A stretch of DNA of 64,000 nucleotides from a virus. Taxonomy: Duplodnaviria; Caudoviricetes. Below the pieces are notes generated by a model, which worked only from the letters and a program-made list of their open reading frames with translations, was not told where the DNA came from and did not search any database. The position numbers were made by a program, and so were the translations under genes. Below, piece after piece: positions 14,240-21,728 of the stretch; within the stretch, counting starts at the first letter, position 1; each line of letters opens with the position of its first letter. The stretch spans positions 1 through 64,000 of the IMG/VR virus record IMGVR_UViG_3300042541_001363; one strand, written 5' to 3'.

Positions 14240-15022
14240 ATGACAAATATAATAAATCAATATGGACAAGTTAAGTTGGGTGTTAGAATACCACCATTAT
14301 ACCCAGCATTTGTAACCTCTGGATTAGGGTTTAGTTACGATGCTTTCGATTCAGCATCATATCCAGGAACTGGAAATATTTTCTATGATACCTCTGGAAA
14401 TAATAGAAATATGACATTATTAAACCAAGTTTTACCATCAGGTACACCAAGTGGTAGTAATATCTCTTATGTTAATACTGGTATTAAAAGATTAGTATTT
14501 AACTACTCAGCTGGAGGTTCTAATGGTTCCAATTCATATGGTAAAGTTCCATTATCAACAACAATTGATGCTAATGGATATACTTTCGGTGGTTGGGTTC
14601 AAAACATAACAGGCGGTGGTTATACATTCCAAAAAGGAATGGATGGTGTTTATGGTGGATGGGCCATTACACTGAGTGTTGGCGATGCTAGTGCTTCGAT
14701 GGGTATAATTAATGCTAATAGTCAATACGTTGGCTTCGGGTCTAATTTAACATTAACTAGTAACCAATGGTATTATGTTGTTGGTCAATATGTTCATAAT
14801 ACATCATTAAAAATCTATGTTAACGGAGTATTAGCAAATACGGTTAATCAAACAACTACACAAATATCACTTCGTAATTCACCAGGATGGACTATAAGTG
14901 GTGTGGCAACGAATATACAAGGTAAGTCTGTGGTATCAACATTCCATACATATAATAGAGTATTGACATCAGATGAAATTCTTCAAAATTTCAATTCAAA
15001 TAAATCCAGATACGGATATTAA
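14240..15022 (+). CDS. Tagged module 1: MTNIINQYGQVKLGVR + LamG/ConA-like domain
   Basis: VTSGLGFSYDA...SYPGTG...YDTSGN; WYYVVG, IYVNG, YNRVLTSDEILQNF. Confidence 0.8.
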   Translation: MTNIINQYGQVKLGVRIPPLYPAFVTSGLGFSYDAFDSASYPGTGNIFYDTSGNNRNMTLLNQVLPSGTPSGSNISYVNTGIKRLVFNYSAGGSNGSNSYGKVPLSTTIDANGYTFGGWVQNITGGGYTFQKGMDGVYGGWAITLSVGDASASMGIINANSQYVGFGSNLTLTSNQWYYVVGQYVHNTSLKIYVNGVLANTVNQTTTQISLRNSPGWTISGVATNIQGKSVVSTFHTYNRVLTSDEILQNFNSNKSRYGY

Positions 15023-15038
15023 AAAATAAAAAATAATT

Positions 15039-15224
15039 ATGATAGTAAAAATAATAAATGAAGCATTATATAATATAGTTACTTATCCAGATAATGAAGG
15101 TAACGTATATTTTAATCCAATAGCACATGGCGATAACACTTGGTATGTCACAACTGAAGATGTTAATAATTGTGATTTTGAATTCTTCAATTTTCTTAAA
15201 AATCATGAAGATATAGAAATTTAA
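15039..15224 (+). CDS. Small partner protein, family A (divergent)
   Basis: YFNPIAHGDNTWYVTTEDVNNC aligns to FFNPTQDADGNWFISVEEVNGC. Confidence 0.6.
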   Translation: MIVKIINEALYNIVTYPDNEGNVYFNPIAHGDNTWYVTTEDVNNCDFEFFNFLKNHEDIEI

Positions 15225-15245
15225 TTAAATTAATAAATATAAAAA

Positions 15246-15467
15246 ATGGAAAACGTATACAAATTAACAGAAACACAAAAAGACCTATTGGTAGGTCAAA
15301 CATGGGATGGGGTTCAATTCTTTAATCCAACTCAAGATGCAGACGAAAACTGGTTTATTTCAGTTGAGGAAGTGAATGGATGCACTCACGAAAATGGTGC
15401 ATTCGAATGGATTCATGAATTACCACTTATCCCTTACAATCCAGTTATAAGTGAATTACCATTATAA
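15246..15467 (+). CDS. Small partner protein, family A (orphan)
   Basis: 69/73 aa identical to 20389. Confidence 0.85.
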   Translation: MENVYKLTETQKDLLVGQTWDGVQFFNPTQDADENWFISVEEVNGCTHENGAFEWIHELPLIPYNPVISELPL

Positions 15468-15491
15468 TAAAAACTAATAAACTTAATTAAC

Positions 15492-15713
15492 ATGCAAGGA
15501 TACAAATATACAACAGAACAAGAAGCAATTGATGCAAGAGCACAAGCAGCTTCATATATGGGATTACCTAACCCAACAATGGATACATTATATTGGGTTA
15601 ACTATAGTCATTCAGAACTTGACGGTTTCTACTACATTCAACACGTTGAAGGACTTGAGGATGTACTAGGTGAACCAATTGAATTTACAGTTACATTTCC
15701 CGAACTAAACTAA
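15492..15713 (+). CDS. Small partner protein, family B
   Basis: 61/73 aa identical to 17578 (GYKYT.EQEAIDARAQAASYMGLPNPT). Confidence 0.85.
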   Translation: MQGYKYTTEQEAIDARAQAASYMGLPNPTMDTLYWVNYSHSELDGFYYIQHVEGLEDVLGEPIEFTVTFPELN

Positions 15714-15736
15714 AAAAATAAATTAATTAAATAAAT

Positions 15737-19514: not shown

Positions 19515-19540
19515 TAAAAACTAAAAAATTAAATATAAAT

Positions 19541-20362
19541 ATGGCAAATATAATAAATCAATACGGACAAGTTAAGTTAGGTGTAAGAAGTACCATCACT
19601 TCTCCTACGGATGCGGACGCTTTAGCATTCATAACCGCGGCAGCAATTACTGGTGCGACTCAACAAAATGCAATCATAACATTGGTAACTCAATTAAAAA
19701 CTTACGGCATTTGGAGCAAAATGAAGGCATTGTATCCATTTGTGGGTGGAACAGCTGCTCAACATAGGTTTAACCTTAAAGACCCAAGAACGGTAAATGC
19801 TGCGTTCTATTTGGATTTCTTAGGAGGTGGTACTCATAGCGCAAATGGGTATCAACCTAATGGTAATTCATATGCTGAGACTTATTTTAATCCTACAACT
19901 GGATATAGTGTTAATAATAGCGCCCACATTTCATTTTACTCACGCACAAATTCTTCAGAAATTTTTGATACAGAAATGGGTTGTTATGATGTTAACAATC
20001 TTGTCATTACTACAAGGCGTTCAGACCAATCAAACAATACATTTTTATTTGCTAATACAAATAACGGTATAAACTTTGTTGATTCAGATTCATTAGGTTT
20101 ATATGTTTCAAATAGAATAAACAACCAAGCAAATGGATTTAAAAATGGTGTTAGTAAAGGTAGTAATACAGTAACTGACAACGCTAGAAATAATAGGTCA
20201 GTTGTAATTTGCGCGCAATCTTCACTATTATACGGAATAACTCAATACTCATCAAGACAATGTGCATTCTCATCAATCGGTGACGGTTTAACAGACGCAG
20301 AAGCGACAGCACTATATAACGCTGTTCAAGCATTCCAAACTACATTAGGTAGACAAGTATAA
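19541..20362 (+). CDS. Tagged module 5: tag + DADA.AFI-type domain (probably lectin-like)
   Basis: First 112 aa differ from module 6 at only two positions. Confidence 0.8.
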   Translation: MANIINQYGQVKLGVRSTITSPTDADALAFITAAAITGATQQNAIITLVTQLKTYGIWSKMKALYPFVGGTAAQHRFNLKDPRTVNAAFYLDFLGGGTHSANGYQPNGNSYAETYFNPTTGYSVNNSAHISFYSRTNSSEIFDTEMGCYDVNNLVITTRRSDQSNNTFLFANTNNGINFVDSDSLGLYVSNRINNQANGFKNGVSKGSNTVTDNARNNRSVVICAQSSLLYGITQYSSRQCAFSSIGDGLTDAEATALYNAVQAFQTTLGRQV

Positions 20363-20388
20363 TAATAATTAAATAAAAAATATAAAAA

Positions 20389-20610
20389 ATGGAAAACGTA
20401 TACAAATTAACAATCGAACAAAAAGACCTACTAATTGGTCAAACATGGGATGGGGTTCAATTCTTTAATCCGACTCAAGACGCAGATGGAAACTGGTTCA
20501 TCTCAGTTGAGGAAGTAAACGGATGCACTCACGAAAACGGTGCATTCGAGTGGATTCATGAATTACCACTTATACCTTATAATCCAGTTATAAGTGAATT
20601 ACCATTATAA
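20389..20610 (+). CDS. Small partner protein, family A
   Basis: 70/73 aa identical to 21507. Confidence 0.85.
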   Translation: MENVYKLTIEQKDLLIGQTWDGVQFFNPTQDADGNWFISVEEVNGCTHENGAFEWIHELPLIPYNPVISELPL

Positions 20611-20648
20611 TAAAAACTAATAAATTAAATAACTTAATTAAATTAATT

Positions 20649-21479
20649 ATGGCAAATATAATAAATCAATATGGACAAGTTAAGTTGGGTGTAAGAAGTA
20701 CCATCACTTCTCCTACGGATGCAGATGCGACAGCATTTATAACCGCGGCAGCAATTACTGGTGCGACTCAACAAAATGCAATCATAACATTGGTAACTCA
20801 ATTAAAAACTTACGGTATATGGAGTAAAATGAAAGCATTGTATCCATTCGTTGGTGGAACGGCAGCACAACATCGTTTCAATTTAAAAGACCCTAGAACA
20901 GTTAACGCGGCGTTTTATTTGGATTTCTTTGGTGGTGGTACACATAGCGCAAATGGCTACCAACCAAATGGTAATTCATATGCTGATACTAAGTTAATAC
21001 CACAATATGTTCTAGCATCTAATAACAGTCATTTAAGTTTTTACTCAAGAAGTAATACTGTAGGGGCTAATAGAGCTTCAATGGGTTCAACAAACTCCCC
21101 TTCATTTACAACGTCACATCAGATGTTTTTACGATTTACAGATGGAAATTTTTATGGAATAATTGATTCTAATACTGCATTTGCACAGTTTTCAAATACT
21201 AATACGACGGGGTATTATGTTGTAAGTAGAGCATCTAATAATTCTATCAAAGCATATAAAAATTCTTCACTGGTTGCAACTAATACAAATACAATTACTC
21301 CAATTACTAACTCATATCCAATACTTATAAGCGCAAGAAATGATGCCTTCACCCCACAAAATTTTGACGATAAGGAAACAGCATTCGCATCAATCGGAGA
21401 CGGTCTATCCGACACTGAAGCAGCTAACTTCTACACAGCGGTACAAACATACCAAACTACATTAGGTAGACAAGTATGA
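20649..21479 (+). CDS. Tagged module 6: paralogue of module 5 with a different central region
   Basis: Shared N-terminus and SIGDGL...QTTLGRQV C-terminus. Confidence 0.8.
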   Translation: MANIINQYGQVKLGVRSTITSPTDADATAFITAAAITGATQQNAIITLVTQLKTYGIWSKMKALYPFVGGTAAQHRFNLKDPRTVNAAFYLDFFGGGTHSANGYQPNGNSYADTKLIPQYVLASNNSHLSFYSRSNTVGANRASMGSTNSPSFTTSHQMFLRFTDGNFYGIIDSNTAFAQFSNTNTTGYYVVSRASNNSIKAYKNSSLVATNTNTITPITNSYPILISARNDAFTPQNFDDKETAFASIGDGLSDTEAANFYTAVQTYQTTLGRQV

Positions 21480-21506
21480 TAATAATTAAATAAAAAATAT
21501 AAAAAA

Positions 21507-21728
21507 ATGGAAAACGTATACAAATTAACAATCGAACAAAAAGACCTACTAATTGGTCAAACATGGGATGGGGTACAATACTTTAACCCTACACAAGACG
21601 CAGACGGAAATTGGTTTATTTCAGTTGAAGAAGTAAATGGATGTACTCACGAAAATGGTGCATTTGAATGGATTCATGAATTACCATTAATCCCTTATAA
21701 TCCAATTATAAGTGAATTACCAATGTAA
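21507..21728 (+). CDS. Small partner protein, family A
   Basis: Paralogue of 15246 and 20389. Confidence 0.85.
   Translation: MENVYKLTIEQKDLLIGQTWDGVQYFNPTQDADGNWFISVEEVNGCTHENGAFEWIHELPLIPYNPIISELPM

Follow-up and report, generated by a model that had tools for sequence, protein, structure and literature searches.

Cassettes that consist of a tail fibre gene and a downstream chaperone gene, of the T4 gp37/gp38 and the Mu/P2/lambda Tfa type, are a familiar arrangement in phage genomes, as are the internal proteins IPI-III and Alt of T4, which carry a short N-terminal capsid-targeting sequence. Branched systems of receptor-binding proteins (RBPs) with docking peptides have been described for the SP6/K1-5/K1E phages and for the KP32, KP34, Menlow and PhiK64-1 groups of Klebsiella phages (PMC6872550; PMC13352976). 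In SP6/K1-5-like and Klebsiella phages, peptides of 7-11 residues and longer attach the secondary RBPs (PMC6872550, Latka et al. 2019), and these docking peptides have been validated by engineering (PMC13352976, Latka et al. 2026). Here, we describe a locus of an uncultured tailed phage in which six genes for lectin-like proteins, arranged in an array, start with one and the same 16-residue peptide (hereafter, the tag), with small genes (hereafter, the partners) interspersed among them. The locus lies in the first 64 kb (hereafter, the window) of the 83,117-bp contig IMGVR_UViG_3300042541_001363.

The array is like the branched RBP systems in that an N-terminal peptide (from 7 residues upward) is kept within a phage group and differs between groups, precedes interchangeable bodies, of which there are several per genome, and forms the boundary at which these bodies are swapped. 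The bodies themselves differ: trimeric beta-helix depolymerases there, small ConA-like domains here (260-481 amino acids (aa) in the window and up to 982 aa in relatives), each with a tiny cognate gene on its 3' side. This small gene is reminiscent of the fibre/chaperone cassettes, where, too, a small gene directly 3' of the binding protein co-varies and moves with the C-terminal binding domain; however, the partners are only 61-76 aa long and comprise three families without detectable similarity to known fibre chaperones (Pfam, PHROG, tblastn of families A and B against 50,697 phage records, and PDB fold comparison of the one partner modelled). With the T4 capsid-targeting sequence, the tag has in common that it is a short N-terminal address-like peptide on otherwise unrelated proteins encoded in a variable locus, but it contains no protease cleavage motif, and its cargo consists of lectin-fold modules encoded next to fibre genes. 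Hence, the original prediction went too far in holding that no system of such layout had been described: docking peptides as a principle are already familiar from phages of Klebsiella and E. coli. What is new compared to the published systems is that the heads are small lectin-fold domains rather than trimeric tailspikes, that they are accompanied by obligatory mini-partner genes of unknown families, and that one head family with its partner has reached a great size and acquired numerous address peptides.

Results

The tag is a separable peptide module

All six genes are located on the plus strand (14240-21479) and open with M[A/T]NIINQYGQVKLG[V/I]. The original observation is thereby confirmed, and the tag is confined to these genes: a degenerate back-translated pattern has exactly six matches in the 83-kb contig, one at the start of each gene, with none on the reverse strand and none for a reversed-pattern control. 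The exact pattern retrieved no further contig from IMG/VR, and the relatives discussed below were found by protein search. The tag is present in six of the six window genes, in all eight tagged genes of a closely related contig (L008) and in more than 20 metagenome proteins; the close metagenome homologues of gene 4 (P0003-P0012) bear an identical copy.

In every copy, the tag is followed by a Pro/Ser/Thr-rich stretch of 6-12 residues. In the AlphaFold2 (AF2) model of gene 5, the overall predicted local distance difference test score (pLDDT) is 92.3, with values above 90 in the domain, which starts at about residue 24, and of 51-60 in residues 1-20. Homology to cultured-phage proteins mostly begins past the tag, at residues 24-48 (residues 24-37 in the case of gene 3), the exception being the match of gene 3 to a protein of phage Fizzles, which begins at residue 14. 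Among 95 full-length homologues of the DADA-type domain that forms the heads of genes 5 and 6, this domain is preceded by 7-50 residues (median 18.5) that represent at least 11 recurrent peptide classes unrelated to one another, and in six fusion proteins (P0295-P0300, 540-578 aa) the DADA head stands behind a tagged domain similar to ArabFuran-catal without a tag of its own. Conversely, the window tag is found on LamG, ArabFuran-like and DADA heads, and each of two related tag classes, the MTYFN type and the GQVGWR type, is shared by ArabFuran-like and DADA heads, which means that the assortment of tag and head is independent. The tag is thus an autonomous N-terminal module linked to exchangeable lectin-fold heads, not a strand of a fold, and the claim that interchangeable heads stand behind one tag is borne out.

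What is conserved in the tag appears to be the peptide. Among 18 copies from five contigs, synonymous variants occur in 10 codons and conservative replacements in 5, a count in which the first 12 codons are partly constrained by the search pattern, although an unconstrained protein search yielded the same peptide. This agrees with the earlier observation of mostly synonymous variation. In distant phages, the core G-Q-x-[KR]-h-G-h-[RK] is retained, with different codons and unrelated upstream DNA. The form of the tag, two short hydrophobic runs flanking a Gly-containing turn, suggests a hairpin; DSSP assigns an isolated strand or bridge to residues 5 and 11 of the gene 5 model, within its low-confidence part, which may be a faint hint in the same direction. 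A search of PDB sequences with the tag and linker gave no match, and there is no Glu among residues 1-16 of any copy, so that the prohead-protease site L/I-x-E is not present.

The leaders of the six genes (14180-14239, 15714-15736, 16592-16657, 17800-17826, 19515-19540 and 20611-20648) are A/T-rich and lack a Shine-Dalgarno-like purine run. Together with the match of the DADA head to a Flavobacterium phage (see below), these leaders may point to a host from the Bacteroidota.

Three head types, apparently of one fold class

Laminin_G_3 (PF13385) is recognized at 45.9 bits in gene 1 (residues 95-247) and at 138.3 bits, in two stretches, in gene 4, against a Pfam cut-off of 27.6. ArabFuran-catal (PF09206) is recognized at 31.2 bits in gene 2 and 45.3 bits in gene 3, against a cut-off of 25; these matches cover positions 13-89 of the 315 in the model, that is, its first quarter. 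Genes 5 and 6 encode the DADA type and have no Pfam match. In PHROGs, the tagged proteins match internal or C-terminal parts of long families annotated as 'virion structural': gene 1 corresponds to the C-terminal parts of phrog_24074 and phrog_8510, and residues 26-274 of gene 2 to phrog_10356. At about 42-52% identity, the ArabFuran-like part resembles segments of proteins from Gordonia, Microbacterium and cyanobacterial phages whose annotation is minor tail or virion structural protein; in gene 3, the matching region is residues 14-129. In Flavobacterium phage FL-1, the DADA head has a match in the C-terminus of a 384-aa protein encoded beside the portal gene. At the DNA level, a blastn search with the whole array against the 50,697 phage records gave no match.

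A search of PDB sequences with the DADA profile detected no relative. Comparison of the DADA model with known structures using Foldseek retrieved lectin-type beta-sandwiches (E 1e-6 to 3e-4), including domain 4 of the arabinanase AbnA (E 1e-5 to 1e-6; template modelling (TM) score 0.5-0.67), clostridial neurotoxin chains (chiefly receptor-binding fragments), trypanosomal sialidases and trans-sialidases, and a cyanopodophage tailspike chain. The DADA head is therefore predicted to be a ConA-like beta-sandwich, and because Laminin_G_3 belongs to the same class, as does the ArabFuran-like head, which we take to be a GH54-type sandwich, all three head types appear to represent one broad ConA-like class with unrelated sequences. 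The proposal of three unrelated domain types accordingly stands with respect to sequence but not with respect to the predicted fold.

The DADA family is very large, with 4942 metagenome proteins at E<=1e-5 in a word-limited search, and it abounds in lake metagenomes. Comparison of its two members in the array is instructive: genes 5 and 6 are nearly identical over residues 1-110, drop to about 20% identity over residues 111-240 and are conserved again at the C-terminus, with DNA identities of 80-97%, about 50% and 87-97% for the three parts, respectively. The same central region is the variable part throughout the family. A variable centre in a constant frame is the pattern that would be expected of a changeable binding surface.

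The partner genes go with the head, not with the tag

The seven genes of 61-73 aa that were originally assigned to two families are indeed seven real open reading frames (ORFs), and four of these belong to family A and two to family B; the assignment does not extend to the 61-aa gene, which is only about 21-25% identical to family A. Loci with a single pair show that the small gene stands 3' of its head, and we read the array with that polarity. In nine of nine loci (the window twice, L008, L014, L015, L016, L017, L018 and L019), which carry six tag classes, the gene 3' of the DADA head is an A-type partner. An ArabFuran-like head is followed by family B both in the window (gene 3) and in L010/L011, the latter with a different tag. 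LamG heads are followed by the 70-aa subtype of family A, by a third family, C (76 aa, found in L008), or by the 61-aa gene; in L008, the 70-aa subtype follows LamG genes of 260 and 488 aa. The exceptions in the window are gene 2, which has no partner, and two orphan partners, one of family A (15246) and one of family B (15492). The former has a DNA identity of 85% with the A-type partner that ends the L008 array; the latter is orthologous to the B gene located immediately 3' of the L008 fibre (88.7% match between window positions 15497-15780 and L008 positions 3131-3413), which points to insertion of the first cassette between the fibre and this B gene.

Because the partners stay constant under changing tags and change under a constant tag, they appear to be cognate to the head rather than to the tag. 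The possibility that the partner binds the tag was rejected on the same grounds. The part of the original prediction that made the small proteins cognate to their neighbours thus survives, whereas their proposed role as adaptors of the tag does not; the partners fit head-specific chaperones or cofactors. A complex prediction for the DADA head with partner A, made without controls, gave 0.91, 0.02 and 0.01 in different runs and counts neither for nor against binding.

In small phages, the start and stop codons of the DADA gene and its partner overlap or abut, and the pair directly precedes lysis-type genes (holin-like membrane proteins and endolysin-like proteins, as read from the sequence); in L018, a glucosaminidase gene is found about 2 kb 3' of the pair. 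The position before the lysis genes is the usual place of the receptor-binding gene. In L017, two genes with near-identical C-terminal 40 residues (L017:2-961 and L017:2557-3261) flank a block made up of the pair and two membrane-protein genes, in what looks like a duplication bracketing the module.

Family A comprises 327 cluster representatives (50% identity) at E<=0.001, with no match in Pfam, PHROGs or cultured phages, and tblastn searches of the 50,697 phage records with partners A and B gave none. No relationship of family A with B or with C was detected by hhalign. The AF2 model of partner A (20389; pLDDT 92.4) is a small alpha/beta fold for which no PDB match was found (best Foldseek E 0.9; best VIA-align Z 2.9); in BFVD, it resembles only uncharacterised proteins of uncultured phages, and the ESM Atlas yielded no usable match. 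In phmmer searches, partner A produced weak, repeated matches in multiple stretches (up to 18, E 6e-43) to Ig_7/PKD-repeat surface proteins; one of the long matching proteins, P0145, bears a sorting domain of the type IX secretion system. We did not accept homology with these repeats, given that the confident AF2 model is not an Ig sandwich; a short D-x-N-G-C motif in common, or else compositional bias, might explain the matches.

The array turns over between near-identical genomes

In L008, the flanks of the array are closely similar to those in the window (DNA identity of 90-96% in the fibre gene and 92.8% in the downstream flank), yet between them lie eight different tagged genes, including a single-LamG gene, five multi-LamG genes (the largest encoding 982 aa) and an ArabFuran-DADA fusion with a frame break. 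Within the array itself, the window and L008 resemble each other in DNA only at the tag junctions (84-92%), across the partner genes (85-89%) and in patches of some heads. A syntenic 31-kb contig contains yet another gene set, and other, more distant large phages possess a single tagged gene with a partner. The relatives, then, do not share an invariant array, and on these comparisons the locus is best described as a hypervariable cassette island, because near-identical flanks enclose different contents.

The broken gene of L008, which is the last tagged gene there (L008:14764-16427), is split into a 118-aa tagged ORF and an overlapping 475-aa ORF, whereas P0295-P0300 encode the tag-ArabFuran-DADA protein intact. 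Sequencing error, decay into a pseudogene or a frameshift site could each account for the break.

Genomic setting of the array

The contig is rated 23% complete by CheckV, so that the full genome probably spans several hundred kb. It has a G+C content of about 30%, and its genes for a tail sheath, a large DNA polymerase and a helicase-primase show that it belongs to a large myophage. The array stretch, or parts of it, is present in lake-water metagenomes, of which the best-matching sample may be the source sample. The features of the locus are listed in Table 1; the terminators that were predicted to bracket the block are seen as hairpins on its two sides. Three fibre-type genes precede the array, and glycosyltransferase and sulfation genes adjoin it.

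Table 1. Coordinates and content of the tagged array and of the genes around it
Feature	Position	Strand	Remarks
Fibre, 693 aa			Peptidase_S74 chaperone domain; upstream of array
684-aa protein			upstream of array
169-aa protein	9472-9981		upstream of array
Two small DUF5659-like genes	10045-10281, 10893-11138		just 5' of 997-aa fibre
997-aa fibre gene	11160..14153	+	repetitive, Ser/Ala/Thr-rich; directly 5' of array; phrog_13589 match
Terminator-like hairpin	14172..14210	+	between fibre gene and array
Tagged lectin gene 1	14240..15022	+	260 aa; tag 14240-14287, Pro-rich linker, one Laminin_G_3 domain
61-aa gene	15039..15224	+	3' of lectin gene 1; weakly A-like
73-aa partner, family A	15246..15467	+	orphan, no head directly 5'
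73-aa partner, family B	15492..15713	+	orphan
Tagged lectin gene 2	15737..16591	+	284 aa; tag, PTPP linker, ArabFuran-catal-like head; no partner 3'
Tagged lectin gene 3	16658..17575	+	305 aa; tag, linker, ArabFuran-catal-like head
73-aa partner, family B	17578..17799	+	3' of ArabFuran-like head (gene 3)
Tagged lectin gene 4	17827..19272	+	481 aa; tag, linker, two Laminin_G_3 domains
70-aa partner, family A (70-aa subtype)	19302..19514	+	3' of gene 4
Tagged lectin gene 5	19541..20362	+	273 aa; tag, linker, DADA-type head
73-aa partner, family A (73-aa subtype)	20389..20610	+	3' of DADA gene 5
Tagged lectin gene 6	20649..21479	+	276 aa; second DADA-type head
73-aa partner, family A	21507..21728	+	3' of DADA gene 6
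Terminator-like hairpin, bidirectional	21737..21763	both	closes array
DUF2827 gene, conserved		-	3' of closing hairpin

In the 31-kb relative and the distant phage L014, too, syntenic fibres stand 5' of tagged genes, and the 997-aa fibre, as a conserved flank of the array, is a candidate docking scaffold. Long internal DNA repeats are present in the fibre gene (12600-13700), and its product is 997 aa long in the window compared to 917 aa in L008, so that the number of repeats is evidently variable. The fibre N-terminus, M-G-Q-T-K-I-V-L-N-R (11160-11200), loosely resembles the tag core (G-Q-x-K-h-x-h-x-R) as well as the MTQTKVGWR-type tags found on some DADA heads, and apart from the tagged genes, no other ORF of the contig has a tag-core-like motif near its N-terminus; the fibre may use the same socket as the tag, or the likeness may be due to chance. 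At its other end, the fibre (13900-14153) has a C-terminal domain (V-Y-L-N-G-L-x-L ... D-Y ... F) similar to that of the 169-aa protein, for which neither Pfam nor PDB sequence searches returned a match. The two small DUF5659-like genes, a label taken from the syntenic relatives, also precede the homologous fibre in L008, the 31-kb relative and L014, and this family appears to be a conserved companion of the fibre.

Discussion

The interpretation that we favour, and hold to be somewhat more likely than not, is that the tag is a virion address, that the heads bind glycans and that each partner serves its own head as a chaperone or cofactor. The considerations behind it are the modular genetics of the locus, its structural-module context, the annotations of homologous domains and the precedent of docking peptides. 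Under this scenario, the 16-residue tag, together with the short Pro/Ser/Thr linker, would be a lineage-specific address or docking peptide that plugs all of these proteins into one kind of socket, either on the particle itself or on a fibre attached to it, probably by addition of a beta-strand or hairpin. The one to four ConA-like head domains would then bind host surface glycans through their variable centres, as their fold class and pattern of variation suggest, whereas the 61-76-aa product of the downstream gene, specific to the C-terminal head, would most likely serve as a folding or assembly chaperone or as a cofactor, by analogy with tail fibres and their chaperones. The near-identical 48-nt tag sequence might, in addition, provide the homology for recombination, a handle by which the cassettes are reshuffled; this would explain the different gene sets in close relatives.

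Several observations weigh against this interpretation. The phage is uncultured, and the location of the tagged proteins on the virion is inferred; glycan binding, likewise, is deduced from the fold. The known docking peptides carry trimeric tailspikes, not small lectin-fold proteins, and, unlike the branched RBP systems, this locus revealed no T4gp10-like branching domain in Pfam, PHROGs and PDB sequence searches of the structural genes upstream of the array (5310-7391, 7394-9448, 9472-9981 and 11160-14153) in this 23%-complete genome; the 684-aa, 997-aa and 169-aa neighbours have no PDB sequence match. The dissimilarity of the partners to fibre chaperones, including the lack of a PDB match for the modelled fold, is a further point, as is the occurrence of a tagged gene with its partner among non-structural genes in L010, L011 and L016.

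The last of these observations would be accommodated if the tagged proteins were not virion-bound at all but were soluble lectins or glycan-active enzymes made during infection, with the tag serving in oligomerisation, localisation or turnover. Such proteins could act on glycans of the host envelope or on the phage's own glycosylated fibres, or be released at lysis, and the partner would inhibit or cap the lectin, holding it inactive inside the cell. The match of two heads to part of a glycosidase family, the glycosyltransferase and sulfation genes next to the array and the failure of PDB sequence searches of the neighbouring structural genes to reveal a socket are all compatible with this possibility. 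Nevertheless, we consider it unlikely: the glycosidase match is limited to a small part of the Pfam model, tail or virion structural annotations recur among the proteins that contain these head families, the pair in small phages ends the structural module before the lysis-type genes, and lineage-specific tags on a common head are what a particle-specific address predicts. Capsid targeting as in T4, whereby the tag would load its cargo into the prohead for injection or internal use, calls for the same format, namely, a short shared N-terminal peptide on polymorphic cargo encoded in a variable locus of a large myophage. Yet, the tag, having no Glu, contains neither the L/I-x-E motif of the T4-type prohead protease nor the x-x-E motif of the phiKZ type, the cargo consists of lectin-fold binding domains with up to four repeats and 982 aa as opposed to small internal proteins, and the locus is embedded among fibre genes, all of which makes this route quite improbable.

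It is also conceivable that the tag acts mainly as DNA or RNA, being a repeated translation-initiation region or a linker for recombination by gene conversion that encodes a functionless peptide. Indeed, the 48-nt tag is 84-100% identical among copies, the junctions are the sole array-wide DNA similarity with L008, the leaders are uniformly A/T-rich, and the cassettes clearly turn over at the tag junctions. However, the differences between copies are mostly synonymous, distant phages keep the residue pattern with other codons and unrelated upstream sequence, and the presence of at least 11 alternative short peptides before one head family implies a need for an N-terminal peptide at the protein level, so that we regard this explanation as improbable; a role in recombination, moreover, is compatible with docking and does not replace it. 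Finally, given that all three heads are assigned, or at least predicted, to be ConA-like beta-sandwiches, the tag might have been the first strand of a fold common to the six proteins, the outcome that the original prediction itself had named as fatal. We deem this very improbable because the tag is of low confidence and unpacked in the AF2 model, a Pro/Ser/Thr linker separates it from the domain, and the same head occurs with all those different N-terminal peptides and, behind another domain, with none.

Returning to the docking interpretation, a bolder version can be imagined in which the tag is a universal plug, and six to eight monomeric lectin heads, each matured or capped by its cognate 70-aa protein, occupy repeated sockets along a neck or tail fibre, for example, the 997-aa protein. 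The result would be a multivalent 'bottle-brush' glycan-binding organelle that is re-equipped by cassette exchange, and the DADA-partner pairs would be among the most abundant unrecognised receptor-binding cassettes of freshwater phages, fitted to different virion types by some 10-20 N-terminal residues. We offer this picture as a speculation that is rather unlikely to hold in full.

Conclusions

If the favoured interpretation holds, host-surface recognition in abundant lake phages would depend on a three-part kit, an address peptide, a lectin head and a cognate mini-partner, that is reshuffled between near-identical genomes. A very large unannotated head family, with thousands of metagenome proteins, and three partner families would thereby be recognized as receptor-binding equipment, and possession of the same N-terminal peptide would become a simple rule for predicting the proteins of one virion. 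The docking-peptide principle, so far demonstrated with tailspikes in phages of Klebsiella and E. coli, would then also cover small lectin modules and uncultured jumbo phages, and the array would lend itself, as a compact natural scaffold, to studies of the way in which cargo is mounted on phage particles by short peptides.

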